Shown: positions 1-54,064, counted from the stretch's first letter. The stretch is DNA of 64,000 nt from Rhodospirillaceae bacterium (GCA_002690995.1 NZGS01000103.1:2280-66279); one strand, 5' to 3'. The notes: a model not told the origin generated them from the sequence alone. Made by a program: numbers and translations.

Positions 1-751
1 CATTTGTACCAAACAACCAACAGCAGCCACAGTTACCCTGATCCCATGAAGGACCGCACACTGGTACGTTGTATTGGTTGTGTTTATTGGTATAGGAGAG
101 TTTATCTTGATAGGCCAAAGGGATTATTATATTGGGGATAGAAATTGGTTTTGCACGTGATATCAAAGGCGAGTCTACCGCCGGCAAAAATGGATTGTAT
201 CCTAAGCGGTATCGTTGTGTTGTGTCCGTGGCCCGTTCGGATGCTGCAACATTTTTTCTCGACACCGCATTGAATGCATTTTCAGGTTGAAATACGTCAA
301 AAGGGGAGAGTTCGGAGGAGTATTGTTTTAGCGAATCCTTATTATACTGCAGATTCATACTATCACAGAAGAAAGCATCCTGAAATAGTTCCGATGGTCT
401 TGATGTCATGTAAATGGCGAAAAACCCTCTGTTTCCCCACTGTTGGCCCCAGGAGTTTTTTAAGATCCAATACTTTTTATCATCAAGTGTGCCATATCCA
501 ACTAAAAGTACTTCATGATTCGCTTGAATGGTATTCCCGTCTAGATTTATTTTATTCGTAAGAATAAACTGACCAGGATTATCCGAAGGATTTGTGATAT
601 CAACATCAAAATTTAAGACATTGATGGACACCGCAATCGGACCTTTGGAATATAGTATTTTCTGTATTATGTCATTTGAATCCATTTCCGGTTCCCTGTC
701 GAATACAATTATAGGAAAATCAGCATCTGCAATATTTTGTATCAGCGACAT
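1..751 (-). CDS. papain-like (C1 family) cysteine protease, partial, runs off the left edge
   Basis: This ORF is absent from the ORF track because it has no stop inside the window. My hand translation of the minus strand from the ATG at 751-749 stays open to base 1: [108 protein letters not shown]. It carries both the His/Asn-lobe motifs (NH-x-VLLVGYG, YWI-x-KNSWG) and the Cys-lobe motif (QG-x-CG-x-CW). Confidence 0.7.
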
Positions 752-803: not shown

Positions 804-2363
804 TCATAAGGTAATTATAAGATCAGTGGTTGGATACAACATTTTGGCAATCCGGACATTTTCCATGATTTGTTCCCTGTCCATTGTTTTTTTCCGCACT
901 AATGTATTTGCCAACCACAGAAGCATCGATTTATTTCTCAAAAGAAGCTTTCGTACCTCGATAGCACAATCTTCGACAAGGTTTTGAATTTGTTTGTCTG
1001 CCAAGAGCTTTACCTGCTCACTCAAAAGCGAATGAATCGGGCGTGGAACCATCCCATGATCCAGGACCATCTCTTTTGCCAGCGTCGTAGCACGAATCGA
1101 GTCATCCAGAGCCCCGGTTGAACTCTCTTCATCAAAAAGAATCTCTTCGGCAATTTTCCCAGCCAGGAATATCATTATTTTTTCCCGGAGATACGTTTTC
1201 GAATACAAACCTTTTCGATTTGGAACAAAATACGTATATCCTAGAGAACCATGCCCACAGCTATCAATTGTTATTTTGGACGGAGGCTCATGTAAGGTCG
1301 AGAATAGTCCCATGAGTAAATGGCCACATTCATGGATGGCAACCCGTTGCTGCAAATCGTAAGTTAACACCGCATTCGATGTGGTAGTACCAAGGATAAT
1401 ATTATCCCGAGTTCTATCCACCATTGAAACCGTATCCACAGTTTTATTGTGACGCAATGCCCATAAACTTACTTCGTTCAAGACATTTTCAATATCAGCA
1501 CCGGACAGTCCTTCCGTGGAGGCGATCATCTCCTCCGTCGTTATTTGAATGGGCTTCCGAATCCGATGGAGATCAATAATTTCTTTTCGGGTTGCTTCAT
1601 CAGGATGTGGAACATGCACAATTTTATCAAAACGACCGGAACGAAGTAAAGCGGGATCCAACATATCCTTCCGGTTCGTAGCACCAATAATAAATACATG
1701 TTTCATTTTCTCGCGGTCGAAGCCGTCCATCAATACCAACAGCTGATTTAACGTTTGAAATCGTTCAATACTGGCCCCTTCATCGGACGTACTTCTTTTC
1801 GCTCCAATCGAATCGAGTTCATCAATGAAAATAATACAAGGTTGATTTTTTGTAGCAAGTTCAAAAACTTCCCGTACCCTCTGTGCGCCAACCCCGACAT
1901 ACTTTTCATTAAATTCAGCACCGGAAAGGCTAAGAAAATTAAATCCACATTCACCGGCAAAACACCGTGCGAGCAACGTTTTTCCATTTCCAGGTGGTCC
2001 TTCCAGGAGCATCCCTTTCGGTGTTCGTATATTATATCCATCATATAGATCCCGTGAAAGGAGCAATTCTTTCACCTGGTGTAACTCGTTCTTGATTTCC
2101 TGGTACCCCCCAATATGTGAAAAATTTACGGTAATGTCATTCTCAAAATTCCATTTCTCCGTGTTTTTTGGCTTTCCAAAAAGGGATTGGGGGTCAATCA
2201 ACACAATCGGCGTTGTCGTGTTGTTGGGCACCGCTTTACTTTGAATTTCCTGACGGTTCTTAATGGCCTGTTTTTTTATTCGATCGAGGTACGATTCATA
2301 GGGTGTCATTTGAAAACAATGTGCGACCATGATAAAAGAAGAAAGCAATACAATTCGCCACAT
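804..2363 (-). CDS. FtsH-like AAA+ ATPase / zinc metalloprotease, paralog 1
   Basis: Walker A is GPPGNGKT and Walker B is IIFIDELD. The second region of homology ([19 protein letters not shown]) is present, as is the HEXXH zinc site (HECGH). There is a single N-terminal hydrophobic segment, MWRIVLLSSFIMVAHCF. Confidence 0.9.
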   Translation of the reverse strand: MWRIVLLSSFIMVAHCFQMTPYESYLDRIKKQAIKNRQEIQSKAVPNNTTTPIVLIDPQSLFGKPKNTEKWNFENDITVNFSHIGGYQEIKNELHQVKELLLSRDLYDGYNIRTPKGMLLEGPPGNGKTLLARCFAGECGFNFLSLSGAEFNEKYVGVGAQRVREVFELATKNQPCIIFIDELDSIGAKRSTSDEGASIERFQTLNQLLVLMDGFDREKMKHVFIIGATNRKDMLDPALLRSGRFDKIVHVPHPDEATRKEIIDLHRIRKPIQITTEEMIASTEGLSGADIENVLNEVSLWALRHNKTVDTVSMVDRTRDNIILGTTTSNAVLTYDLQQRVAIHECGHLLMGLFSTLHEPPSKITIDSCGHGSLGYTYFVPNRKGLYSKTYLREKIMIFLAGKIAEEILFDEESSTGALDDSIRATTLAKEMVLDHGMVPRPIHSLLSEQVKLLADKQIQNLVEDCAIEVRKLLLRNKSMLLWLANTLVRKKTMDREQIMENVRIAKMLYPTTDLIITL

Positions 2364-2393
2364 AGTTATTTTTTGTATAAAAAAAATATGACT

Positions 2394-2669
2394 TTAAATG
2401 ATTGAATGGGCGTCTAACTTTATTTTGTAAACTAAGGTGAACAATCGAATGCCAACCGAAATTCCACAACCCATCATCAAATACAACGAGCCCACCAAGT
2501 GCGCATGGATGAAAACAAAACCAGATGCTACAATCCCCATTACCAGAGTACTTGTCGAAATATCATTGGCGAGTTTTGTACGATACATTTTCATGATTTG
2601 CGGGATAAACATAATTGCAGAGATACCACCTCCTAAAAAACCTGTCGTTTCAGCAATGTAATAATTCAT
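2394..2669 (-). CDS. PQ-loop (SWEET/MtN3-type) three-helix membrane protein
   Basis: The 91-aa product has three hydrophobic helices. The PQ motif lies at the end of helix 1 (AIMFIPQIMKMYRTK). Confidence 0.65.
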   Translation of the reverse strand: MNYYIAETTGFLGGGISAIMFIPQIMKMYRTKLANDISTSTLVMGIVASGFVFIHAHLVGSLYLMMGCGISVGIRLFTLVYKIKLDAHSII

Positions 2670-2750
2670 TTTAAGGTTTTAAATCAAGGACAGATATTCA
2701 TTTTTTCCTTCCAAAAATATAGTTTTTTAATTTCCGTCATATTTATAAAT

Positions 2751-3425
2751 ATGGAACAGTTTTATGCAGGATTTGTATCTGGAGTATTCCAAACCGTGAT
2801 TGGTCATCCATTTGATACTTTGAAAGTATGGAGCCAAAATTACGCAAAACTCAAACCACCAAAAACCACATTGACCAATCTGTTCAAAGGGGTTCACTAT
2901 CCTTTATTACAAGCTCCTTTCCTCACGGGGATCAGTTTTGGCGTGTATGGCAAAATTTATGAAAAGACAAAAAATACATATATCGCTGGATCTTTCACAG
3001 GAGTAGTTAGCTCTGTGGTCGACACCCCGATCGATTTTTATAAAATTGAAAGCCAGCAACAGAAAACAACAATCAATAACTCTTGGCTCTATTCCTTTCG
3101 ATTTTGGCATGTCGTCCTAATGCGTGCGGTTCCTTCCTGTGCACTGTATTATTCCACATATCATAACATGCGCGAACTGGAAGTACCAATCCTTTTCTCT
3201 GGAGGGATAGCTGGATTATGTTCATGGACTCTCACCTATCCTTTGGATACCATAAAGACGAAAATACAAACTGGTTTAACCACAAGTATCCGACAAGCCA
3301 TCGAAGAAGGCAATTTGTGGAAGGGTTTGTCGTTTGCAGCGATTCGCGCCGTTATTGCGAATGCGGTTGGCTTTTATGTATATGAACAAACATTGCGCCT
3401 ACAAACTGATCAATATTCGAAATGA
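2751..3425 (+). CDS. mitochondrial carrier family (SLC25) protein, unusually short
   Basis: There are three P-x-[DE]-x-x-[KR] carrier signatures: HPFDTLKVW, TPIDFYKIE and YPLDTIKTK. The product is only 224 aa. Confidence 0.85.
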   Translation: MEQFYAGFVSGVFQTVIGHPFDTLKVWSQNYAKLKPPKTTLTNLFKGVHYPLLQAPFLTGISFGVYGKIYEKTKNTYIAGSFTGVVSSVVDTPIDFYKIESQQQKTTINNSWLYSFRFWHVVLMRAVPSCALYYSTYHNMRELEVPILFSGGIAGLCSWTLTYPLDTIKTKIQTGLTTSIRQAIEEGNLWKGLSFAAIRAVIANAVGFYVYEQTLRLQTDQYSK

Positions 3426-3465
3426 TTATCAATCGCAAATTATACTGAAAAAGATTTCACTATGC

Positions 3466-3507
3466 GTTTTTCTTTCGAAAGACCATTTTATCAAACGAAA
3501 GAAAAAC
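3466..3507 (+). terminator. hairpin 40 nt downstream of the carrier gene stop
   Basis: GTTTTTCTTTCG (3466-3477) and CGAAAGAAAAAC (3496-3507) are perfect 12-nt reverse complements separated by an 18-nt loop. Confidence 0.5.
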
Positions 3508-3579
3508 TTGTAAAAATGAAAGACAAAAATAATTAAAAAATTTCCAACAACTGTATTATTACAGGTCCAAAAAAGGCCA

Positions 3580-3981
3580 ATGAAATTAGATTATTCTTCC
3601 TTTAACAAAGAGTCGATGCGAAAACAATTGATTCTACAAAGAAACCGATTACTTTTTCAAAAACAAAAAGACGTACATACTCTTCAATATTTACTTTGGT
3701 ATAATTATTTTACGAAACCCATCTATACCCAAAAGAAGAGTTGTATTGATGCCATTGAAATATTAGCAAAATTGATGCATAATCCCTCGCAACCGACCAC
3801 ATTTTTTTCCAATGGAGATTTACGGCATGGAGAAATTTTAATTAAACCTGCTGTACAAAATAACTTTGTACAGGTCCGTTTGCCAAAACAAACGAAAGAA
3901 GGTTCTCTTGTCTCATGTCGACCTCAGGAAGGAGAATATCTTTCCCTGCTTTATGAGACATTGCGAGTATTACCAATATGA
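3580..3981 (+). CDS. hypothetical protein
   Basis: This 133-aa ORF occupies its own space. No motif was recognised. Confidence 0.4.
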   Translation: MKLDYSSFNKESMRKQLILQRNRLLFQKQKDVHTLQYLLWYNYFTKPIYTQKKSCIDAIEILAKLMHNPSQPTTFFSNGDLRHGEILIKPAVQNNFVQVRLPKQTKEGSLVSCRPQEGEYLSLLYETLRVLPI

Positions 3982-3990
3982 AAGTGCAAA

Positions 3991-4635
3991 TCAACCCTTT
4001 TGGTTATACAGGGACCGTTGATCATGCCGCTTCATATTGCATATGTGACACTTCCAACCCAAAAATTTATGGGTAACCGGATCATGATCTCGATGCCATC
4101 CGCGTCGATGCTCACGATTACAAGAGGGACAAATGTCACCAGACCGTGGTCGCGGAGGTATATTTTCATGTTCCCTTTGCAAAGTATTTTGACGTTCATC
4201 GTTCAACGTTTTCTCACACGTTTTGCAAATTGCGTTTAACCGAATATAATATCCATTCTTGTCAACACGATTTCTATAAAATCGAAAATTTTCGTGCGAC
4301 TGATGTGTCAGACATTCTCGACATTCCATCAGACTAGTGGGATATCCTTTCGAAAAAATAACTTCCAATGCGCTGTGCTCCTCTGAGTCGAGGATTTCTC
4401 TCGCCAAATCACCCATCTTGAATGTTTTTATCGTAGAAAGACCAAACAGCTTGGGATTTTCAGTATGAGAATTATAAGCATGACACAACCGTCTGAGGCG
4501 ATCTTCATCAGCCGACGAAGGACACTTTTGTAGTTGTTCCATTAGATGACTGAATAATTCCTCCTTTCGTTTTTCAGAATCAACACCGATCATTTGGACT
4601 ACTGAAAGATAAAACAAAACTTCAATTTTTATCAA
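3991..4635 (-). CDS. endonuclease VII-like (HNH/EndoVII fold) protein
   Basis: The C-terminal block CPSCNREHRRGWHRDHDPVTHKFLGWKCHICN fits the endonuclease VII pattern C-x2-C ... DHD-x2-T-x-K-x2-G-x2-C-x2-CN. The true start is probably the ATG at 4593 (MIGVDSEK), 29 nt below an AAAAATTGA motif. Confidence 0.5.
   Translation of the reverse strand: MIKIEVLFYLSVVQMIGVDSEKRKEELFSHLMEQLQKCPSSADEDRLRRLCHAYNSHTENPKLFGLSTIKTFKMGDLAREILDSEEHSALEVIFSKGYPTSLMECRECLTHQSHENFRFYRNRVDKNGYYIRLNAICKTCEKTLNDERQNTLQREHENIPPRPRSGDICPSCNREHRRGWHRDHDPVTHKFLGWKCHICNMKRHDQRSLYNQKG
4622..4630 (-). promoter_or_regulatory. AAAAATTGA early-promoter-type motif
   Basis: The plus strand reads TCAATTTTT. It lies 29 nt upstream of the in-frame ATG at 4593. 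Confidence 0.5.
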
Positions 4636-4640
4636 CAGAA

Positions 4641-5471
4641 CTAAAAAACGAATTTGGGACCTTCATTTGCTGATTTCGGAGATTTCAAATGAGATAAGAA
4701 GACCTCATCCAAGTCGCGAGTTTTTGTACCGAGAAAATAATTGCTAGTGTCCACTCCTTTTGTACGCAAATAGGAGTCATCAATCAGTTCGTTCCCTTTA
4801 AACGTTAAAGGGTTTTCATGAAAAAGAATTTCTTCAATCACATGAACCATAATTCTCGGATCCACACATTCTTCGCGTGAACCAATGTTGCGAAGTCGCA
4901 AAGCGTCGGTCCAAAGCGGATATTTGGTCCAAACGCTATTACAGCTAATATTATGGTAGCGTAGAACTCTGGCCATCGATTTCATGTATGTTGTTTGTGC
5001 AAGTTTACTTTGCATATAAGGTGTGAGGTACCTCACTTTATCGTCAATTTTGTACGTAGGAGAGGTATATACTAGATGACCATAGTTTTTCTTTTGCATC
5101 TGGGGCAAGAAATGTTCCGTCAGCATGATTGGTGCAAGTGTGTTGATTTGGAATAACTTTTGCAAATTTTGGTCCTTTTCATGTGCTCGTAGCGATAGAT
5201 AGCCCGCGTTAAAGATAAGAATATTCGGCTGAAACCCAGATTTGTACACGTTTTCTACAAATCGTGGAAATTTTTCCGGTTCCTCCATTTTTAGAGCCAT
5301 TCCCCGTAAAGCCTTTTGATTATTAAATTCCTTCTCAATTTGCTTTGTCTTAAAGTGGTCCGTTCCTGTAAATATGACCGGGATTTGACGATGATAGAGT
5401 GCATCCACAATCTGCCTACCAACCCCACGTGTGCCACCAAAAACAATTGCTTGCATTATTTGTTTTTCCAT
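4641..5471 (-). CDS. short-chain dehydrogenase/reductase (SDR)
   Basis: The glycine-rich NAD(P) motif is FGGTRGVGRQI. The NAG motif (IFNAGY) and the catalytic Y-x3-K (YMQSK) are both present. Confidence 0.8.
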   Translation of the reverse strand: MEKQIMQAIVFGGTRGVGRQIVDALYHRQIPVIFTGTDHFKTKQIEKEFNNQKALRGMALKMEEPEKFPRFVENVYKSGFQPNILIFNAGYLSLRAHEKDQNLQKLFQINTLAPIMLTEHFLPQMQKKNYGHLVYTSPTYKIDDKVRYLTPYMQSKLAQTTYMKSMARVLRYHNISCNSVWTKYPLWTDALRLRNIGSREECVDPRIMVHVIEEILFHENPLTFKGNELIDDSYLRTKGVDTSNYFLGTKTRDLDEVFLSHLKSPKSANEGPKFVF

Positions 5472-5534
5472 ATGATGAAATAAACAAAAAAATCATTTTT
5501 TCATTTAAGAAAAGGAAATATTAAAAAAAAGGGA

Positions 5535-7097
5535 ATGAAGATTCAATATTTATCGCTACACGCTTTAATATGGTTTTATTGTGTAAACTCTTATCACATG
5601 TTCGATAACTTTTCGCATTTTTCCCACGCACAATCAAAAAATGGAACAAAAAAAAATTTTATTGAAACCATTTTAATCCCCCTGCCGTTCAAACCAGAGC
5701 AGTTTATGTCACCGAACGATGATTTCTCGGATACGTTCCATGTAAAGTCAAAACCTGACAAAACTTTTCAAGATATCGGAGGCTATAAAGATATTAAAGA
5801 CGAGCTTTTACAACTTCGAGATATTTTTGACAAAAAGGAAATTTATAAGGAATATCGATTACGGACTCCCCGAGGAATCCTCTTGGAGGGTCCACCCGGA
5901 AATGGCAAAACCCTTATGGCAAAATGTTTTGCAGGTGAGTGTGATTTTTCGTTCATTGCTAGTTCCGGATCGGAGTTTAATGAAAAATACGTTGGCGTTG
6001 GTGCTGCACGTATGCGGAAATTATTCGAGACTGCACGCAAAAATCAACCGGCCGTTATTTTTATTGACGAACTCGATGTAATTGGTTCCAAACGTGTCAT
6101 TTCGGAGGATGGAGGAGGGTCCGAAAAATATCAAACCTTGAATCAGCTCTTAGTTTTGATGGATGGATTCGATAGTGCGAAAGATGATATTTTTGTTATC
6201 GGTGCAACGAACCGGAAAGATGTCCTAGATGAAGCTCTCTTGCGCTCGGGTCGTTTTGATAAAACGATCCATGTTCCAAATCCAGATGCGGAAACACGTC
6301 GTGAAATTATTCGGATCCATAGCCGTTATAAACCTTTAGACCCAGCAATTGATATGGAGGATATGGTGGAATTAACCGGTGGATTATCCGGTGCTGATAT
6401 CGAAAATTTGTTCAATGAAGCCTGTCTTAAAAATATTCGAGAAAATAAAATTCCAGTCCGACTTTCTGATTTGGAAAATATTCGTGAACGCTTTTTAGTA
6501 GGATATACCGTTCGAAAAAAAAATATCAACTTGGAAATGCACGAACGAATTGCTCATCATGAAGTGGGTCATTTATTAGTAGCCATGGCATGTCCTGAAC
6601 ATGAAAAACCTACAAAAATAACCATTCAAACCCCTGGAGAAACAACCCTCGGATATACTCAGTTCATGATTAAAAATGAAGTATTTCTCTTTAATAAAAC
6701 CTATTTGTTTGCTAAAATTAAAACACTTCTCGGCGGGTTGGTCGCCGAAAAAATAATGTATGACGATAATATTTCATCCGGTGCCATTGATGATTTGGAA
6801 CGTGTCAAAAAAATTGCCAGTGATATGGTTTTGAAATATCACATGTCGACCAAAGATGTCTACGCTCATCATAGTGAAGAATATAAACGTTGCGCGGATC
6901 AGCAAATCCAAAAACTCATTTTGGATGCGAAACAATCCGTCACACAACTTCTTTCTGCAAATAAGAAACTACTATGTTTTCTTTCAAAAGAATTGCTCGA
7001 ACACAAAACCATTGAAAAAAAAAACCTACTCAAAACAATTGAACGAGGTCTACTTCAGCACCCCTCCAACGACTTTCCTAATCTACCTCCTCAATAA
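5535..7097 (+). CDS. FtsH-like AAA+ ATPase / zinc metalloprotease, paralog 2
   Basis: Motifs are [35 protein letters not shown] and HEVGH. Long identical runs are shared with paralog 1 ([31 protein letters not shown]). There is a single N-terminal hydrophobic segment. Confidence 0.9.
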
Positions 7098-8925
7098 TTG
7101 GCGAAGGAGCTTCATCCTGTCTCACTTTTTGATCGGGACCTGGAGCAAACGTTTTCAAAAATTCTTCTTGACGCTTGACGACCTCACCCTTCTCAAGTGT
7201 GAAGTCATTTAACCAATCTAACTCTTTTTGAAGTGCTTCCCTCGTTGAAGAAGAATCATCGGGAGGCAAAGATTTTATTTGTTGCAACAATAGCTCCTCA
7301 TACGACTGTCGCGCTTCTTGATTCTCTTTTGCAATTTTATCGGCCTGTTTAAATTCATCTGCGTCAGCAACCATTTGCTCAATCTGTTCCTTGGAAAGAC
7401 TGCGATCACCATTATTAATGGTTAAGGTTTTCTTCCCACCAGGCACATTTTCAACCTCTGCCGTAACATGTAAAATACCATCCGCGTCAATATCATAGGT
7501 CACATTAATTTTTGGTATTCCACGAGGCGATGGTGGAATATTTTCTAACGTAAACGTACCAAGAACATTATTGTCCTTGGCTTTGTAACGTTCTCCTTCC
7601 AATATTTTTATCGTTGCAGACGGTTGATTATCAGAATACGTCGAAAATGTTTGGGTCTTTCGTGCTGGTATAGTGGTACCCCTCTGAATCAAGACGGTAC
7701 AAACATCACCCGATGTCTCAATACCCAAAGATAATGGTGTACAATCCAATAACAAGATATTCTCCGTCATTTCTGACTGTATGCCAGCCAAAGCGGCCGC
7801 TTGAATTGTAGCACCGTAAGCCACACACTCGTCGGGATTCACACCAGAATTTAAATTTTTCCCAAAAAAATCCCGCAATAAAGCCTGGATTTTTGGAATA
7901 CGAGTCGTTCCTCCTACAAGAACAATCTCATCCACTTGTCCTTTGGAAATTTTCGCATCAAGAAGCACTTTTTGAACAGGATCCATGGTTCGCCGAAACA
8001 GTTCACTACACAAGTCCTCAAATTTCGCGCGAGTGATGGTGTACCCAAAATCAATTCCTTCATATAAAGCATCGACCTCGATAATCGCGCTCGTACTGCT
8101 ACTCAACGTTCGTTTTGCACGTTCACACGCCGTATGTAGACGAGCACGAACCTTTTTATTCTCATGTACCTTTTTACCAGGGTTTTTTTTATGAAATTCC
8201 TGTATGCAATATTCAACCAAAATACGATCGATATCTTCGCCACCCAAATGCGTATCACCTGCTGTGGCTTTGACTTCAAATACGCCATCGCTAATGTTTA
8301 GTAAAGAAATATCATGTGTACCACCACCACAATCAAAGACAAGGATATTTTTTTCTTCACCATCCTTCATTTTATCCAGACCGTAGGCAATGGATGCTGC
8401 CGTCGGTTCATTAATTATTCGCAAAACATTTAACCCCGCAATCACTCCCGCATCCTTTGTCGCCTGACGTTGTGCATCATTAAAATAGGCAGGTACCGTA
8501 ATAACACAATCCGTCACCGGAGATCCGGCATAGGCTTCTACAATATTCTTCATTTTCTCCAATATCATTGCAGAGATTTGTTCTGGACTAAAAACCTTCT
8601 TCTCATTTCTATATGTTACCTCCAACTGCGGTTTATCTTGCTCGTTTACAATCTTATACGGTAAAACCTTCATGTCCGTCAGCAACTTCCGGTCGGTCAT
8701 CGATTGTCCAATCAGACGCTTGACATCGTAGATTGTATTTTCAGGATTCTTGTTCCGATTTTGTTTTGCCGCTTCTCCAATCAAACGTTCTTCGCCAAAC
8801 GAAACCCAACTTGGCGTCGTACGATTTCCAGTCTCATTCGCAAGGATTTCCACCTTATTATTCTCGAAAATGCCAACACAACTATATGTTGTTCCTAAAT
8901 CGATACCACAAACAATTTTTGCCAT
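7078..8925 (-). CDS. Hsp70/DnaK-family chaperone, eukaryotic cytosolic type
   Basis: Hsp70 signature blocks [12 protein letters not shown] and DLGGGTFD-like ([11 protein letters not shown]) are present, and the C-terminus is IEEVD. I placed the start at [11 protein letters not shown] (ATG 8925) rather than at the ORF-track start 8973. Confidence 0.95.
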
Positions 8926-12082: not shown

Positions 12083-12403
12083 TTGATAAACATTATTTTT
12101 TTCGTAATAGTAAATATGCATTCCTTTTATATCGCCTCTGGATACATCGGTTCCTTCTTAATCTCCGTTGTTCTCATCCCACAAGTATACATTACGTTTA
12201 AAACGAAAGACGTTGAGGGTCTTTCATATACATTTCTTCTTTTGCGATGCGTTTCAGCAATCTTCTTTGCATTATACGCAACAGGCATTGTAATTGAGGA
12301 AAATGTTATTGATGGCGCACCGATTGTCATAGCGAACATACTTATTATCGTTTCTACCTTTATTCTATTATATGCGAAACATAAATTTAAAAAACAAAAG
12401 TAG
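12083..12403 (+). CDS. PQ-loop three-helix membrane protein, second copy
   Basis: The PQ motif SVVLIPQVYITFKTKDVEGLS lies after helix 1, and there are three hydrophobic helices. The start may be the ATG at 12116 (MHSFYIASG). Confidence 0.65.
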   Translation: MINIIFFVIVNMHSFYIASGYIGSFLISVVLIPQVYITFKTKDVEGLSYTFLLLRCVSAIFFALYATGIVIEENVIDGAPIVIANILIIVSTFILLYAKHKFKKQK

Positions 12404-14286: not shown

Positions 14287-17200
14287 TTAATGTCGGAACG
14301 ATTTATCGTGTCTTTCCCAGTGTTCAACATAGCGGAAAGGACAAATATTGTGTTCACTATGAAGACAATACTCCAAAACGAATCCCTGTTTTTCAAGTTT
14401 CTTTTCCCATTCAAGTTTTTGATGAAAGCTAGAGACATTATTTCGTATTAATATATTTTCTACTTGCGAGAAATCGTCAATATCCTCTGCTAACAAAAGG
14501 TTATTTATAATTAATATACAAGGACTCTTGATATGAATCGGTGGTGCGGTATGAATCGTTGGATGGAAACCTTGGTGTTCCGCAAAGTTTCGAAAGGACT
14601 CGACAAATGGTGAATCACGCATGAAGGATATGATCTTTTTGTTCGCATTGAAGCAGTACAAAGAGCTGTTACCTACACCAATTTCGACGACATCTTTGTG
14701 CAGCGAGGTGAGATATTTTGCGAGCAGTTTTTCCCATTGTACATCTCTTGAAAAAAGGAAACTTTCGCTAGGCTTCCATGATGGCGGTGAAATGTGCGTT
14801 TTAGAGTAAATGGCGAAATCTTCATTTTCAAAATGTTTTTGAACACCGAAAAGATCAATGGAATTTTCTCCTTGCTTTTCTACGAGTAATATCCCCCCAG
14901 ATTGTAGCAAAAACATGGCATTATTCAGAATTACATTCTGTTTGGGCATTTGATTGACATATATAATGTCAAATTTATGACTTTTTTTGATCAATTGAAT
15001 CAAAGCATTCAAGGGAGCGTTTTTAAGGATTGTATGGTCGATCCATCGTTTTGCATTATATTCAAAAAAACAAGATGGCGATCCTTCGTTGACGATGGTG
15101 AGACGACAACCATTCACTTCTCGAAAAAAATAATCTGCCATGACACCCATTTCATCTTCTAATAACAATATCGAGGTATGACCGGGGCTGCCATGGATCA
15201 ATGATTGCAAGACGTTGCGGTCCTTATGTGTGATCATGGATTGACTTGAAAAAAAGGAGATTGAATCTGTCTGCAAGACGTTTCGGAAATGTTGCTCACG
15301 GACTTCCCAAGTCATAGATTCTGCCCAATCAAAATTACGTTGGACGTAGTCATTGCGATCAATATTCCCAGAAAATATCCCTTGGATGACACTGAGGGCG
15401 TTTTCCATCCAATTCAGAGTACGCGGATCACCTGGGATAATAATACCCCGGTTTCCAATTGAAGACGCCAGACCACAATCACCAGACGACACAACGAGAG
15501 TTCGTGATGCTGCCGCTTCCAATGCTGTCATGCAAAACGTTTCTTGAAACGTGCAAGGATATAACCAAATATCCGCTTTCCCCCAGGCATCATACAAGAC
15601 GTTTTTTCCAACAAAGCCGTGAAAAACAACATGGTATGCATGCAGTTCATCTTGGTGTTCTTTTATCCATGTTATTTCATTTTGGGCCCGGGACAAGGAA
15701 AAAGGATTGTCTAAATCCGAGTAGACATGCAAACTCACATCATGACTGAGACGATATATATCAGGCCACATTTTCAAAAGCACATATAATCCGCGATCGG
15801 GTGTGGAGGAGTAATGAAATCGCATGGGTACCTTTTCCTGTATTTTCAACAAGGATGACGGTACAGCAGGTTGTAATATTCTCAATTTTGTAGGACAAGG
15901 TATGTGGGGAGTAACATGCTGTTGTAGTTCTTTTGAAACACAGAATATTGTCTTTAATTTGAATCCGTCATGGAAATGATCAAAGTGGGTCACGAAATCA
16001 TGCAAAATCAAGTATACGTTCTCCACGTTTGGTGCCAGCATGGCCAACGATGAATAGGCCACACTTCGATTAATGATGCAGTATTGTATATAGTGTTCTC
16101 TGGCAAATTCAGCAAACGTCGGGAGAGGAGAATAAGTGACATTATGGTGCGAAACAATGGTGGAGCATTCGCAAAAAATTCGCAAATCATATTGTTTCGA
16201 ATTGGCCATGGTTTCTGCCAACTGAATAATAAAAGTTTCACTTCCTCCGATTCCTTTCTGATGGAGGTCTTTGCCTGTCCATGATGTCCATCCAAACGGT
16301 ACGATGAAGCAGACAATGGGTTTCTTGCATAGGTTTGGTCGATAAATTGGAACCAACCATTGATTTAGAATAACATGTAGCTGAGGAAACAAATAAATAG
16401 GAACATATAAATGTTTTTCAAGATGCCATTGTTGAATGATTGATTTGTGTTGTTCCAACAATTGACTAGCACGGATTGCATAGAGACTATCGCGAAAATG
16501 GAGTGCAAGACGTAAAACATAATGTGGAATATAAAAGTAATACATGGTTGGTTTGAAAAAGGAAGGTCCAGGTATTCCAATATCGAACGCAACTTTGAAA
16601 TATGAAAAGGCCTTGTTCCATTCATTGATTTCAAAATAGTAAATGCCCAGCATAAAATCAGATTCCGGTCGTGATGGATCAATTTGTTTCGCCAATTGAT
16701 AATATTTCTCAAAGACGTCCAAACCTGATTTTTCATGATTATGATGTATTCGTCCGAGCTCAAAAGCACAATTCCATCTTTCAATGAGACTTCCCTTATA
16801 TTTGATGGGCAGCCGCTTTTCGTAGTATTGAATGGCTTTTCCCCAATTTTGCAAAAAACGATTCAGTTCCCCAAGTTGAAACATAATTTTGTCATTATGC
16901 GGTTGATCTTGGAGATTTTTCTCAAGCATGGGGATTTCAAAATGTTTGTGTCGCTCAAGTGTCCTCTGAATCGATTCTTCGTCCAATGAATCTTCAATGT
17001 AGAAGTGTTCTTGGGGAATTCTTTCAATACTGTCTGTAGAGATATTTAACTCTTCGAGTATTTTTCCTTGGAACCGTAATTTCTGATAACTGGGAAAAAT
17101 TCGGCATGATAAAAAATGGGTGTCCGCCCGGTGTACATAATAAGAATAACAAGATGTATCATTTTGTGTACAGAGAGCCTCCAGTGTCTCTCGAAAGTTT

Positions 17201-17988
17201 CCATGAATTTTATAGGAATCATCCAAGACCATCGTGAACTTGTAAAACCCCTGACAACAGTCAAGGGCATAATTACGTGCCTGTTCAAAATTTTCAAAAT
17301 GGCAAAAGAACAAGGTTCCTTGTTTTTGATCAATCAATTCCTTCTCTATGACTTGAACAGTTGTGTCCGTACTTCCAGTGTCGACAATCGTCCAATGATC
17401 CACAAGATGTGCGTTATGAAGAATCATGTCTTTGAAGAGATCTCCTCCATTTTTGACAATCATGCACACTTCTACGAGGTTATCAAACAACACACTATTG
17501 TCGGTACATGGAAAAATGGCTTCAAATCCTGGACACCATGAACGTGGAAGGTACACATAAGTGTTTTCCTTTTCCCAAAAATATTCTTGCATATTGGGTG
17601 CCCACCATTGTTCTGGTGATAAATAGACACAGTTGTTTGAACCCGGAGGACAACGGCCCGTTAGATCCACAAACACATGGAAAAAATCTACATCGGTACC
17701 AGAACTGCGATGGACATTACTTACATGATGTATATTTTTATTTTCCTCGAGCGCCGCAACTTGTGGTATTGTAGACGAATTAAGTATGAAAATGTTGTCG
17801 TAGAATGGACTGAGCTCTATTCCGAGGAATCCTCCGAGATGGGGATGAGACAATAGCAGCGTATCAAAGGTACGATTACAGTTTAATTTTTTCAAGAATG
17901 CTGCATACCGTTCAAGATTTTCAGGTTTCTTTTCAAAAGTTTCATTTTCATCGACGCAATAAAATTTCTGATTCCATTCCACCTTCAT
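14287..17988 (-). CDS. 1233-aa multidomain glycan-building enzyme (GT2-like + TPR + GT1/GT4-like + methyltransferase-like)
   Basis: In N-to-C order: CMIVKNGGDLFKDMILHN...WTIVDTGSTDTT (GT2 type), then TPR-like helices (WGKAIQYYEKRL, EWNKAFSYFKVAF). Next come GIGGSETF...FQETFCMTALEAAASRTLVV (GT4 E-x7-E region) and FDIIYVNQ...LLQSGGILLVEK (class I methyltransferase-like tail). Confidence 0.75.
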   Translation of the reverse strand: MKVEWNQKFYCVDENETFEKKPENLERYAAFLKKLNCNRTFDTLLLSHPHLGGFLGIELSPFYDNIFILNSSTIPQVAALEENKNIHHVSNVHRSSGTDVDFFHVFVDLTGRCPPGSNNCVYLSPEQWWAPNMQEYFWEKENTYVYLPRSWCPGFEAIFPCTDNSVLFDNLVEVCMIVKNGGDLFKDMILHNAHLVDHWTIVDTGSTDTTVQVIEKELIDQKQGTLFFCHFENFEQARNYALDCCQGFYKFTMVLDDSYKIHGNFRETLEALCTQNDTSCYSYYVHRADTHFLSCRIFPSYQKLRFQGKILEELNISTDSIERIPQEHFYIEDSLDEESIQRTLERHKHFEIPMLEKNLQDQPHNDKIMFQLGELNRFLQNWGKAIQYYEKRLPIKYKGSLIERWNCAFELGRIHHNHEKSGLDVFEKYYQLAKQIDPSRPESDFMLGIYYFEINEWNKAFSYFKVAFDIGIPGPSFFKPTMYYFYIPHYVLRLALHFRDSLYAIRASQLLEQHKSIIQQWHLEKHLYVPIYLFPQLHVILNQWLVPIYRPNLCKKPIVCFIVPFGWTSWTGKDLHQKGIGGSETFIIQLAETMANSKQYDLRIFCECSTIVSHHNVTYSPLPTFAEFAREHYIQYCIINRSVAYSSLAMLAPNVENVYLILHDFVTHFDHFHDGFKLKTIFCVSKELQQHVTPHIPCPTKLRILQPAVPSSLLKIQEKVPMRFHYSSTPDRGLYVLLKMWPDIYRLSHDVSLHVYSDLDNPFSLSRAQNEITWIKEHQDELHAYHVVFHGFVGKNVLYDAWGKADIWLYPCTFQETFCMTALEAAASRTLVVSSGDCGLASSIGNRGIIIPGDPRTLNWMENALSVIQGIFSGNIDRNDYVQRNFDWAESMTWEVREQHFRNVLQTDSISFFSSQSMITHKDRNVLQSLIHGSPGHTSILLLEDEMGVMADYFFREVNGCRLTIVNEGSPSCFFEYNAKRWIDHTILKNAPLNALIQLIKKSHKFDIIYVNQMPKQNVILNNAMFLLQSGGILLVEKQGENSIDLFGVQKHFENEDFAIYSKTHISPPSWKPSESFLFSRDVQWEKLLAKYLTSLHKDVVEIGVGNSSLYCFNANKKIISFMRDSPFVESFRNFAEHQGFHPTIHTAPPIHIKSPCILIINNLLLAEDIDDFSQVENILIRNNVSSFHQKLEWEKKLEKQGFVLEYCLHSEHNICPFRYVEHWERHDKSFRH

Positions 17989-18024
17989 TTTCTTAAAAAA
18001 AAATGAATGTTTAAATAATTTAAC

Positions 18025-18453
18025 CTATTTCACCTCAAAATCATGTTCTAAAATGGAAGAAAGACATTGTTCCATGGAGAAATCGGTAGCATCAATGTCA
18101 TAATTTTTTTTGATGAGTTCTCGTAATTCAGCGATGGGGGTTTGTGAATATTTTTTTTTTACATAGGATCGTATGAGATGTATTTCCTCAGAGTTTTGTG
18201 TCAATTTTTCTTGTAGATCCTTCATTTGTTTTTGTCGAAAATTTGATTGTTGACGGGCGGTCAATTGACGCCATGGTTTTACTTGCTTGTTCATTTTTTT
18301 TTGATAGACTTTATAGTACTGAGACGTCGGATGGATTTGTTGCTTCGTGAGGTCGGTCCATAAGTCACGCAACTCATCTACCGATATTTGATAATTTGTG
18401 GCAACGTTTTCTAGAAAGGGGAAAATGGTTTCGTGGTTTACTTGATTCAACAT
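18025..18453 (-). CDS. hypothetical protein
   Basis: This 142-aa ORF is unopposed. No motif was recognised. Confidence 0.4.
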   Translation of the reverse strand: MLNQVNHETIFPFLENVATNYQISVDELRDLWTDLTKQQIHPTSQYYKVYQKKMNKQVKPWRQLTARQQSNFRQKQMKDLQEKLTQNSEEIHLIRSYVKKKYSQTPIAELRELIKKNYDIDATDFSMEQCLSSILEHDFEVK

Positions 18454-18499
18454 AAATATCTTTTATTATGATAAAAAATGCTATAAAAATTTCATTTTT

Positions 18500-37281: not shown

Positions 37282-38085
37282 TTAAATATAATTATTTTCA
37301 TCTTCAATCTGCTTCTTGCTTTTTATATATAAACTTATATTTCCTAAACTACCGATTTTGGATTGAATATGGAACGGCATATTTTTCTCAAAAATCAAAT
37401 TAATTTTATCGTTCAAACCTGAAATTTTCAAGATGCGAGAAATGTGCTCCGTCTCAAAGACATCCTCGAAAACATAATCGTTGTCATTGCTGTCTGAATC
37501 GCCGGGCAGAAATACTTCTCGGGAAAAGATGGCATCCACGTCGGAATAAAAACCAATTTGTTGTTTTGTGGCACGTATTTTCAAAGTGGTGGATATTGGA
37601 ATCATGTCTTTACACATTTTTGAAAATTCGTTTGAAAACACCAAAATCGAATTACAATATTTTTTTGGTAACTCAATTTGAAGATTCTCCAATGTCTGGA
37701 TAGTAATCATTGAAATCGTCTTACGATTCATGTCTTTCGGAATAATCTCAATGCCCAAATAATGAATATTATTCTCCTCAATGAAAAATACCAAAGAATC
37801 ACGCTTCTTTACCGATTTCAGCATGCGATAAAAATGATTCAAATTTATCCCAATATTAATACACTGATTCTCCACCTTTGTACTAAAATGAAAACCAAAA
37901 AAACTGTCGCTGTCCAATTTCAAATCAATTAATAGCTTTTGATTCGAGTCCATCATCCGTAATGTTAAACCTAATGGGGTTATCTGAAAACATGCCGTTT
38001 TCAATGTATGATGCAACAGTTCTATCAATGTTTTGATTACGTAAGCATCATTTGTCTTACATCGAAATAAATAATCAGTCGCCAT
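37282..38085 (-). CDS. PCNA-like sliding clamp, copy 1 (divergent)
   Basis: The 267-aa length and the N-terminal pattern (FRCKTNDAYVIKTLIELLHHTLKTACFQITPLGLTLRMMDSNQKLLIDLKL) are typical of PCNA domain 1. Confidence 0.7.
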   Translation of the reverse strand: MATDYLFRCKTNDAYVIKTLIELLHHTLKTACFQITPLGLTLRMMDSNQKLLIDLKLDSDSFFGFHFSTKVENQCINIGINLNHFYRMLKSVKKRDSLVFFIEENNIHYLGIEIIPKDMNRKTISMITIQTLENLQIELPKKYCNSILVFSNEFSKMCKDMIPISTTLKIRATKQQIGFYSDVDAIFSREVFLPGDSDSNDNDYVFEDVFETEHISRILKISGLNDKINLIFEKNMPFHIQSKIGSLGNISLYIKSKKQIEDENNYI

Positions 38086-53278: not shown

Positions 53279-54064
53279 ATGCCTTCCTTCCACTTAGTAT
53301 TTCAGGATGGACAACGATTCAAACAAATCGTTGATCTTTGCAAAGATATTGTACAAGATGTTTCTTTTCAAATTGAATCCTCGGGTATTTCGATGCAGGC
53401 AATGGATATGGCGCATGTTGCCTTGGTATCGTTTTTTATTCCAAAGCAGGATTTTGCGGAATATAATTTATTTGGAAAGGAAAACTTTGTCATTTCCACA
53501 TCCTTACGTAATTTGAATTTAATTTTAAAATCCTACAAACCAGGATATAAATTATCTTTTGCATTTAATGATAATGACAAACTACAAATTATCTACAATT
53601 ACCGTCCAAAAAATGTCGATCAAGATACGGATGAGCAGTATACCTGGTCCTTGCAATTGATTCACATGGAAAGCAACATGTTGCAAGTGCCTGAGGAAGA
53701 AAATGATGCTACGATTTTTATGGATAGTGCAGAATTCCATGAAATGCTCCGAAATATTGGTATATTTCACGATACCTTACTTGTTTCTATCCGCGGAAAA
53801 GTAGTGGAGTTTGAAACACGAGGTGATTTTGGAAATGTCGTTTTTTGCAAATCCTTTTCCAAAGAGACACTCCGTTCAAAAGTCTCCTTCCTACAACTTG
53901 GATATAGTATAAAATATTTATCTTGGTTTTCCAAAGCGTATCAGGTTGCAAAACAAGTTGAACTGAATCTTCAACGGGAAAGTCCAATGGAAATGCTTTA
54001 TCGCTTTGATGTAGACCATCCTGGTTTCATCCGATTTCATTTGGCACCAAAATTTGACGAATAA
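53279..54064 (+). CDS. PCNA sliding clamp, copy 2
   Basis: The N-terminus is FKQIVDLCKDIVQDVSFQIESSGISMQAMDMAHVALVSF. The length is canonical at 261 aa and the C-terminus is LAPKFDE. Confidence 0.85.
   Translation: MPSFHLVFQDGQRFKQIVDLCKDIVQDVSFQIESSGISMQAMDMAHVALVSFFIPKQDFAEYNLFGKENFVISTSLRNLNLILKSYKPGYKLSFAFNDNDKLQIIYNYRPKNVDQDTDEQYTWSLQLIHMESNMLQVPEEENDATIFMDSAEFHEMLRNIGIFHDTLLVSIRGKVVEFETRGDFGNVVFCKSFSKETLRSKVSFLQLGYSIKYLSWFSKAYQVAKQVELNLQRESPMEMLYRFDVDHPGFIRFHLAPKFDE

Follow-up and report, generated by a model that had tools for sequence, protein, structure and literature searches.

The DNA analyzed here, a stretch of 64,000 nucleotides (nt) referred to as the window (GCA_002690995.1 NZGS01000103.1:2280-66279), was deposited as 'MAG: Rhodospirillaceae bacterium', and we find it to be DNA of a marine giant virus, binned into a bacterial metagenome-assembled genome (MAG). 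It encodes two divergent paralogs of the AAA+/Peptidase_M41 protease FtsH, here termed FtsH_A and FtsH_B. Both belong to a large monophyletic clade of giant-virus FtsH proteins that have lost the membrane anchor and carry a signal-type presequence common to viral PhoH ATPases and to a viral light-harvesting complex (LHC) protein. FtsH is already known from prasinoviruses; the clade, the lost anchor and the shared presequence are what the present analysis shows. Where there was only a loose annotation as 'viral FtsH', they provide an idea that can be tested, delivery of the protease into a compartment of the host cell, possibly a complex plastid.

Two FtsH paralogs in giant-virus DNA

FtsH_A (804..2363, minus strand) is a 519 amino acid (aa) member of the A sub-branch of the anchorless clade, and FtsH_B (5535..7097, plus strand) a 520 aa member of the B sub-branch. 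Both match Pfam AAA (FtsH_A, 141.8 bits, 2.2e-41; FtsH_B, 137.5 bits, 4.7e-40; gathering cut-off 21.2 bits) and Pfam Peptidase_M41 (105.1 bits, 5.3e-30 and 111.9 bits, 4.6e-32, respectively; gathering cut-off 29.9 bits), with a further match to AAA_lid_3 in FtsH_B. A preliminary description of this DNA, made from the sequence alone, had reported Walker A and B motifs, an arginine-finger region and an HEXXH zinc site in both open reading frames (ORFs), and both ORFs were found at the coordinates it gave, with each of these motifs: Walker A GPPGNGKT, Walker B IIFIDE/VIFIDE, the second region of homology (SRH) with its arginine finger TNRKD..RSGRFD, and the zinc site HECGH/HEVGH. A pore-1 loop YVG is located at residue 155 of FtsH_A and residue 152 of FtsH_B, and the pattern [FYW][VI]G[VI]G occurs in 100% of the family. 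Catalytic motifs are kept in 96-100% of the 177 family members, Walker A GPPGNGKT in all of them. The third zinc ligand, an Asp (D420 in FtsH_B numbering), shows no variation among 34 aligned members and corresponds in alignment to the Asp of Thermotoga FtsH. Judged by these motifs, by the Pfam domains and by the third ligand, FtsH_A and FtsH_B look like intact, catalytically competent proteases of the FtsH type, in agreement with the preliminary description.

An AlphaFold2 model of FtsH_A (mean pLDDT 71) was compared with the Protein Data Bank (PDB) using Foldseek, and all 50 top matches were FtsH, AFG3L2, YME1 or FtsHi chains (E 4e-35 to 5e-26). In a whole-protein PDB search p97/VCP ranked first, because its two AAA domains each score, whereas FtsH chains cover both domains with a single continuous match (275-307 bits). 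The protease domain alone scored 57-68 bits against bacterial FtsH, 48.8 against AFG3L2, 44 against Thermus FtsH, 40.6 against YME1 and 37.7 against plastid FtsH12. The proteins belong to the FtsH/M41 family and not to katanin or p97; clustering with such unrelated AAA+ families would, according to the preliminary description, have weakened its proposal. The bacterial FtsH equivalog NCBIfam TIGR01241 is the top match for both proteins, at 407.5 bits for FtsH_A and 429.2 bits for FtsH_B, below its 600-bit cut-off. Beyond the canonical last helix, the subclade that contains the two proteins keeps an extra C-terminal motif, [YFH]P[ST]xD[FLI], at about residues 509-515 of FtsH_A and 508-514 of FtsH_B.

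Related viral loci are designated by L and a number. FtsH_B shares 90% identity with its ortholog in L247, 75% with that in L003 and 66% with those in L001 and L005. Relative to the L247 orthologs, the ratio of nonsynonymous to synonymous substitution rates (dN/dS) is about 0.04 for FtsH_A and 0.045 for FtsH_B, with dS near saturation. Both paralogs are under strong purifying selection.

Relatives of the two proteins are encoded on at least 588 viral contigs in IMG/VR, many of them giant-virus MAGs, and on at least 516 metagenome contigs, from marine and freshwater samples. A neighbour-joining tree was calculated from 427 columns of 205 sequences, of which 178 are viral and 27 are bacterial FtsH, with no eukaryotic organellar FtsH among them; it separates the viral from the bacterial set with 100% bootstrap support. 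The sampled bacterial FtsH proteins, which cover many phyla, are 35-41% identical to the viral proteins and include no evident donor. By this tree the viral proteins form one large giant-virus FtsH clade, apart from the sampled bacterial FtsH. The top 'cellular' matches, which come from Dependentiae and Actinobacteria and are about 880 aa long, were considered as closest relatives or origin and rejected; they have a tandem AAA-AAA-M41 architecture in which the AAA domain is counted twice. Such tandem variants were seen in P0008, P0010, P0013, P0027 and P0054 (Dependentiae/Babeliae) and in P0079 and P0089 (Actinobacteria).

FtsH is a single-copy core gene of prasinoviruses (PMC5769502). The preliminary description had called a duplicated FtsH pair in a virus unusual. 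The gene itself is common, being found on the viral contigs counted above and in the prasinovirus core; a linked pair, within about 170 viral loci surveyed with up to 10 kb of flank, was seen only in the window's virus and in L247 (FtsH_A 82% and FtsH_B 90% identical). The literature searched yielded no account of FtsH in giant viruses other than prasinoviruses, and no description of an anchorless signal-peptide architecture of viral FtsH or of its pairing with a PQ-loop gene. No named prasinovirus isolate was present among the matches listed or the cluster members looked up.

FtsH_A and FtsH_B are 49% identical over 438 aa. Their longest identical run is 14 aa, which is a family-invariant motif, or 16 nt. 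The preliminary description had read long identical stretches as a sign of duplication within this lineage. The stretches are family-wide motifs and are therefore uninformative on recent duplication. Within one 37-member subclade (99% bootstrap), the two proteins fall into different sub-branches, FtsH_A in a clade of 18 (95%) whose core has five members (99%), and FtsH_B in a clade of four (100%). Since each sub-branch has orthologs on other contigs, the duplication is older than this lineage; on the evidence of the tree, it took place inside the viral family, before several viral lineages split. One A-type contig and one B-type contig come from a single JGI sample, which is consistent with unlinked paralogs in a more distant relative and is no proof of them.

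Three Tara/ENA assemblies (contigs of 70, 34 and 5 kb) and the NCBI MAG independently contain the gene order with both copies, and the two genes are therefore not assembly duplicates. This possibility, which had been named beforehand as one that would undermine the pair, belongs to a broader reading in which the pair would be an artefact or bacterial: an assembly duplication, a decaying duplicate, or a true Rhodospirillaceae FtsH. The NCBI record lends itself to such a reading, as the MAG is assigned to Rhodospirillaceae and, among the proteins MAI14401.1-MAI14408.1, FtsH_B is labelled 'cell division protein FtsH' and a eukaryote-type Hsp70 'DnaK', while FtsH_A is labelled hypothetical. Against it stand the giant-virus hallmarks of the window: its primase-helicase is of the D5 type and includes an AEP_C962R domain, and it encodes two PCNAs, the ribonucleotide reductase small subunit, ERCC4, and proteins of the RING and U-box types. 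On related contigs there are genes for PolB, topoisomerase II and a subunit of RNA polymerase. The placement of both proteins inside the viral clade with 100% bootstrap, their divergence, with no more than 16 identical nt in a row, the purifying selection on both copies and the recurrence of the gene order across assemblies likewise speak against an artefact or a bacterial gene. The results in hand refute that reading, and we give it practically no credence. The window thus represents giant-virus DNA that is publicly filed as a bacterial genome, and its 'cell division protein FtsH' and 'DnaK' labels would mislead automated analyses.

A signal-like presequence in place of the anchor

Canonical FtsH is membrane-bound, with its catalytic domains in the cytosol. 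Neither FtsH_A nor FtsH_B has a Pfam match to FtsH_ext (PF06480). The match to TIGR01241 begins at profile position 146-154 of 598, and the N-terminal membrane module is therefore absent. The best 19-residue Kyte-Doolittle mean at the N-terminus is 1.42 for FtsH_A and 0.82 for FtsH_B, below the threshold for a transmembrane (TM) segment. Among 169 dereplicated members of the family the hydrophobic run has a median length of 9 residues and reaches 18 or more in only three, and the median 19-residue hydropathy is 1.32. A second TM helix was flagged in three of the 169, all of them artefacts. The whole family, as its sequences indicate, is without the periplasmic domain and second TM helix of cellular FtsH. 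A single N-terminal hydrophobic segment instead of a two-helix anchor had been noticed in the preliminary description, which likened it to a signal or targeting peptide. The first observation holds for both proteins, and the second was strengthened by comparison across the family.

The presequence of FtsH_A (2316..2363, minus strand) reads MWRIVLLSSFIMVAHC and is followed by FQ, so that a small residue precedes a Phe (...VAHC/FQMTP, the slash marking the junction), and this junction is kept in the A-clade orthologs. That of FtsH_B (5535..5591, plus strand) is weakly hydrophobic and has a small residue before a Tyr (...CVNS/YHMF), where its orthologs have ...IHG/FQ and ...IFS/FQ. Further examples of ortholog junctions are ...VVG/FQTN and ...IHG/FQAF. 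In nearly every member of the family the initial Met is followed by one or two basic residues and a short hydrophobic stretch, after which come a small residue and Phe or Tyr. We scored N-termini by a rule (short h-region, basic n-region, small residues at -1 and -3), with the same strict criteria for the family and for the other genes of the same loci. A signal-peptide-like N-terminus was found in 125 of 177 family members and in 114 of 1446 control genes (odds ratio 28, with independence overstated as the members are related). Among these signal-peptide-like proteins, the small/aromatic junction occurs in 98/125 of the family and in 29/114 of the controls (odds ratio 10.6, again with independence overstated by relatedness).

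The mean charge of the N-flank is +2.0, and the charge of the C-flank is equal to or below that of the N-flank in 75% of the members. The 30 residues past the junction are basic and acid-poor (K+R 15%, D+E 6%), compared to 14% D+E in the catalytic body. After the junction region follows a conserved helix motif, Y..Y[LI]..L, which in many members extends to ...LNS.N[IV]T. A possible homology of this N-terminal motif to TM1 and the first FtsH_ext helix was examined by hhalign and rejected as not significant (E 0.11, 11 columns).

The same presequence recurs on other proteins of giant viruses. Nine of 10 distinct PhoH proteins encoded near FtsH carry it, for example ...LSLSCS/FLRIQAFHSPLSRH, as do 7/7 PhoH proteins from giant-virus MAGs (GVMAGs) or large AT-rich contigs in a separate scan. 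By contrast, a hydrophobic N-terminal core (KD8 ≥ 1.6) was present in 4/56 of the other PhoH proteins listed, which are mostly phage-like and for the most part hydrophilic at the N-terminus. The PhoH gene lies less than 70 bp from FtsH in L156 and L159. PhoH-like ATPases in which a signal peptide is followed by Phe and a basic, acid-poor extension are encoded at L078:4118-5125, L123:4220-5224, L125:671-1681, L156:822-1835, L159:3969-4928, L083:5920-6726, L132:3240-3878, L038:1-802 and L251-L257. A virus-encoded LHC-type protein (Pfam Chloroa_b-bind; L333:5408-5935, plus strand) starts with MKFLSLLIPIATIFQVSA/YQIPTIRSIGSTKPLPNF, giving the junction /YQIPTIRS. Its gene directly follows a PQ-loop gene that is 64% identical to the one beside FtsH_A in the window, and a search for its relatives in IMG/VR found none. 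Since a light-harvesting protein must reach the thylakoid, the viral LHC protein serves as an internal positive control, and the viral FtsH and PhoH proteins share its architecture.

Possible destination of the viral proteases

Bipartite signals of complex plastids consist of an endoplasmic reticulum (ER) signal peptide, a Phe at +1 and a transit peptide that is hydroxylated, acid-poor and net-positive (PMC4329603). The conserved aromatic residue after the predicted cleavage site of the viral FtsH proteins, together with the same presequence on PhoH and the viral LHC protein, fits such a signal-plus-transit peptide, as found in algae with four-membrane, red-lineage plastids. Of the forms that export from the cytosol could take, we tentatively favor this one as the most likely, at somewhat short of an even chance; for FtsH_A and FtsH_B themselves the case is weaker. 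The N-terminus would act as an ER-type signal peptide and the catalytic body would be moved out of the cytosol. In the target compartment the proteins may form soluble or partner-tethered hexamers, composed of FtsH_A, of FtsH_B, of both, or of either with host FtsH, and their ATP-dependent proteolysis there might change how organelle proteins are turned over in the infected cell. The 3-TM PQ-loop protein encoded upstream of FtsH_A is probably its functional partner or is expressed together with it, and the adjacency of FtsH_B and Hsp70 is probably inherited synteny. Organelle remodelling, which the preliminary description had suggested from the neighbouring genes, is a live possibility by way of the targeting signal, not of the gene neighbourhood.

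Several observations weigh against delivery to a plastid. The signal-peptide call is a rule of this analysis and not an established predictor. When candidate sites over a certain range were scored with the ASAFind matrix, with no SignalP gating, 90% of the family and 66% of the controls passed, and the matrix did not discriminate between them. Aromatic residues are also common at the outer end of TM1 in bacterial FtsH, so that what is seen at the junction might be an interface feature retained by descent instead of a +1 Phe. N-x-S/T sequons are 1.4-fold enriched in the N-terminal region only, which fits plain residence in the ER lumen equally well. The calibration by an LHC protein depends on one gene, which belongs to a related virus rather than to the window's virus. 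In FtsH_A and FtsH_B the region past the junction makes a poor transit peptide, and the two proteins are the weakest cases: their first acidic residue past the junction is at +7 and +5, respectively, versus +19 in the LHC protein and +18 to +32 in PhoH, and their net charge after the junction is only +1 to +2. In their subclade the spacer before the conserved motif has a median of 5 residues versus 33, and the N-terminal region measures 107 aa versus 191 aa. A presequence was sought on the LeuA-like and dihydrodipicolinate synthase (DHDPS) proteins of the same virus, which are of plastid-pathway type, and none was found. A plastid destination of this kind would also presume a host with a complex plastid; the prasinoviruses, whose green-algal hosts have primary plastids, encode FtsH as well. 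Amine oxidase, Rieske/VanA_C, aldo-keto reductase and acyl-CoA dehydrogenase proteins were likewise searched for the presequence, and none carried it.

Some of these observations are equally expected of a protease of the ER lumen or secretory pathway, with an ordinary cleavable signal peptide and no involvement of a plastid, which would be soluble in a lumen, be it that of the ER, of the nuclear envelope or of virus-factory membranes, or would be secreted or packaged. The geometry of the N-terminus is that of a signal peptide, the enriched sequons include an N-F-T/S sequon just before the AAA domain that is partly conserved (83/177 members), the early acidic residues of FtsH_A and FtsH_B leave little room for a transit peptide, and members of the family occur very widely, in metagenomes from both marine and fresh waters. 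Torsins show that a lumenal AAA+ protein is possible; an FtsH-type protease is not known from the ER lumen. Lumenal residence leaves two things unexplained, the Phe/Tyr junction in about 78% of the signal-peptide-like members and the same presequence on PhoH, a bacterial-type cytosolic ATPase, and on a light-harvesting protein. We regard this destination as unlikely, though well worth keeping in view. Slightly less likely still, in our estimate, is the idea of the preliminary description, a quality-control module facing the cytosol in which an uncleaved anchor would hold the proteases on ER or viral membranes, where they would work with the Hsp70, PQ-loop and carrier proteins encoded nearby. 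Such an arrangement would place them as canonical FtsH is placed, membrane-bound and with the catalytic domains in the cytosol. The 3-TM protein paired with FtsH_A is a possible tether, and FtsH_B is convergent with an EEVD-type Hsp70 gene in every close relative. The best profile-profile alignment puts the viral Y..L..LN on the first FtsH_ext helix, a hint of descent from TM1 and the start of FtsH_ext, but this is the hhalign match that was not significant. The hydrophobic run, moreover, is too short for a bilayer. The flank charges favor a cytosolic N-terminus, and the catalytic body would therefore lie on the far side of the membrane. The Hsp70 adjacency is confined to close relatives that also keep general synteny (0 of about 160 more distant loci have an Hsp70 within 10 kb of FtsH), and the full block of genes is conserved only in L247.

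We thus retain the bipartite plastid signal as a tentative preference. A wider proposal, to which we give a somewhat lower probability, is that giant viruses of algae with red-lineage plastids encode a set of proteins (anchorless FtsH, PhoH and light-harvesting proteins) that are imported into the host plastid, and that the window's virus duplicated and diversified the protease and coupled one copy to a PQ-loop protein. If this is true, part of the plastid proteome would be encoded by viruses, and there would be a new route by which viruses take over an organelle, with ATP-dependent machines delivered across four membranes. The presequence could also serve as a host-range sequence marker for uncultured giant viruses.

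Gene neighbourhood and relation to known systems

The mitochondrial carrier, PQ-loop protein, short-chain dehydrogenase/reductase (SDR) and eukaryote-type Hsp70 that the preliminary description had named around the two proteases were all confirmed by Pfam. A coherent module of seven genes was not supported: the full order Hsp70, FtsH_B, SDR, two ORFs, carrier, PQ-loop, FtsH_A and Peptidase_C1 is conserved only in L247, and neither the carrier nor the SDR shows a consistent linkage.

One of two associations that recur beyond L247 is that of FtsH_A with the PQ-loop/SemiSWEET-like gene (2394..2669, minus strand), which lies 30 bp upstream on the same strand and encodes a 91 aa protein with a single repeat and three TM segments. 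It scores 30.9 bits against Pfam PQ-loop (22-bit cut-off) and 31 bits against NCBIfam SemiSWEET_2, below the 80-bit cut-off of that profile. The PQ motif MFIPQI is invariant in a 6-member alignment, and a dN/dS of 0.06 indicates purifying selection. A PQ-loop gene of 91-94 aa directly upstream of an A-type FtsH gene on the same strand, at a gap of about 0 to 117 bp, is found in the window, in L247, in L248, in L002/L250/L336/L337 and in L091/L331/L332. The FtsH proteins in these pairs are as little as 49% identical, and the pairs occur in at least three genomic contexts and several lineages. The pairing is not universal, as A-clade FtsH genes without a PQ-loop gene are found in L087 and L088 and PQ-loop genes without an adjoining FtsH in L333 and L335. 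The PQ-loop subfamily is small (16 strong clusters), and a reciprocal search of IMG/VR found no relatives. A second PQ-loop/SemiSWEET-like ORF of 95 aa (12116..12403, plus strand) matches the PQ-loop profile at 2.6e-6, SemiSWEET_2 at 38 bits and the lysosomal cystine transporter family at 26 bits, so that this virus encodes two PQ-loop proteins of the single-bundle type in addition to its two FtsH proteins. Beside the PQ-loop gene on two giant-virus contigs lies a 104 aa ORF with a Pfam Cytochrom_C match (L091:6681-6995 and L333:4590-4904, both minus strand); containing ...KIFKQKCSQCHT..., it looks by eye like a mitochondrial-type cytochrome c.

The Hsp70 gene (7078..8925, minus strand; 615 aa; Pfam HSP70 9.6e-220) is convergent with FtsH_B and overlaps its 3' end by 20 nt. 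The extension upstream of 8925 lacks conservation, and we therefore took this position as the true start. The protein is of the cytosolic type, without a presequence, and its IEEVD terminus belongs to a conserved EEVD/DEVD ending (IEEVD/IDEVD in the orthologs). It may therefore not share a compartment with the FtsH proteins. FtsH_B and Hsp70 are adjacent in all B-clade loci (L001, L003-L006 and L247), in which Hsp70 is 76-87% identical and other synteny is kept as well. The SDR gene (4641..5471, minus strand; Pfam adh_short 3.7e-22) is divergent from FtsH_B, adjoins it in L003, L004 and L247, and is about 10 kb away in L001 and L005.

Between the two proteases, the mitochondrial-carrier-family gene (2751..3425, plus strand) encodes 224 aa with two stretches matched by Pfam Mito_carr (1.2e-26), while a usual mitochondrial carrier has about 300 aa and three repeats. 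The only ortholog found at this position is that of L247, which is 79% identical and of conserved size (226 aa). Two ORFs in the same interval have no Pfam or NCBIfam match: orf133 (3580-3981, plus strand), with orthologs in L247 (79%) and L003 (49%), and the Cys/His-rich orf214 (3991-4635, minus strand), with orthologs in L247 (73%) and L003 (50%). Just downstream of FtsH_A, the 5' part of a papain-family Peptidase_C1 gene (1..751, minus strand) runs off the window and matches the L247 gene at 66% by tblastn. The full gene encodes 405 aa in L338, and L247 and L248 also have the gene at this position. This peptidase (window 1-751; L247:7559-8773; L248:7994-9184; L338:11613-12830) appears to be circularly permuted, the His/Asn half (NSWG) preceding the Cys half (QGNCGSCWLFG), and it has a C-terminal TM helix with a basic tail and no signal peptide. 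L338 extends the same virus past the left edge of the window and contains (17166-21224) LeuA/homocitrate-synthase-like, diaminopimelate (DAP)-epimerase-like (a faint Pfam match) and DHDPS genes, none with the presequence.

Elsewhere in the window are a virus-encoded heliorhodopsin gene (26648-27691, plus strand), with a counterpart on a related contig (L005:16443-17903, minus strand), two PCNA homologs within 64 kb (37282-38085, minus strand, and 53279-54064, plus strand) and a gene for a 711 aa protein in which DUF6940 is fused to a class I/II aminotransferase domain (56163-58298, minus strand). The mimivirid early-promoter octamer AAAATTGA showed no enrichment in the window (16 observed versus 22 expected), and no tRNAs were found in it.

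Among cellular proteins, FtsH is the chief protease for the quality control of membrane proteins and for photosystem repair in bacteria, mitochondria and plastids. The viral proteins share with bacterial FtsH (E. coli, Thermotoga maritima and Aquifex aeolicus) one AAA+ module and one M41 domain in a single chain, the same catalytic residues and the same fold, and bacterial FtsH gives the best PDB matches for their protease domain. They differ from it in having neither the two-helix anchor nor the periplasmic FtsH_ext, and in scoring below the equivalog cut-off. YME1 and AFG3L2 belong to the same FtsH/M41 superfamily and match in fold, but their protease-domain scores of 40.6 and 48.8 bits are below the 57-68 bits of bacterial FtsH. 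In YME1, too, there is one membrane segment, and the catalytic domains lie on the membrane face opposite the matrix. This segment is a true TM helix and is accompanied by a matrix-side N-domain, whereas the segment of the viral proteins is just short and signal-like.

Prasinoviruses offer the closest described viral case, in which a large DNA virus of marine algae encodes an AAA+/M41 FtsH homolog. The window's virus has two divergent paralogs in place of a single copy, and its relatives encode an RNA polymerase subunit. Prasinoviruses are not known to encode RNA polymerase. A chloroplast role, in photosystem II repair, was proposed for the 'FtsH2 metalloendopeptidase' encoded by ORF 013r of OtV5, and was called speculative by its authors (PMC2386258).

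The red-lineage 'ASAFAP' plastid proteins, which include the thylakoid FtsH of the host, resemble the viral family, whose N-termini are predicted to combine a signal peptide, a +1 aromatic residue and a net-positive, acid-poor stretch. Apicoplast FtsH1 is among the complex-plastid proteins with a bipartite presequence. The presequences described here differ in being virus-encoded, the transit part is weak in FtsH_A and FtsH_B, and the mature protein would be without a membrane anchor. In concept, these genes resemble the auxiliary genes of cyanophages, such as psbA and hli, through which a virus carries photosynthesis or organelle-maintenance functions that sustain or redirect host physiology. 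PhoH, too, is common in marine phages, as seen in the many phage-like matches. Phage proteins, however, act where they are made, whereas the PhoH and FtsH of giant viruses have gained N-terminal presequences.

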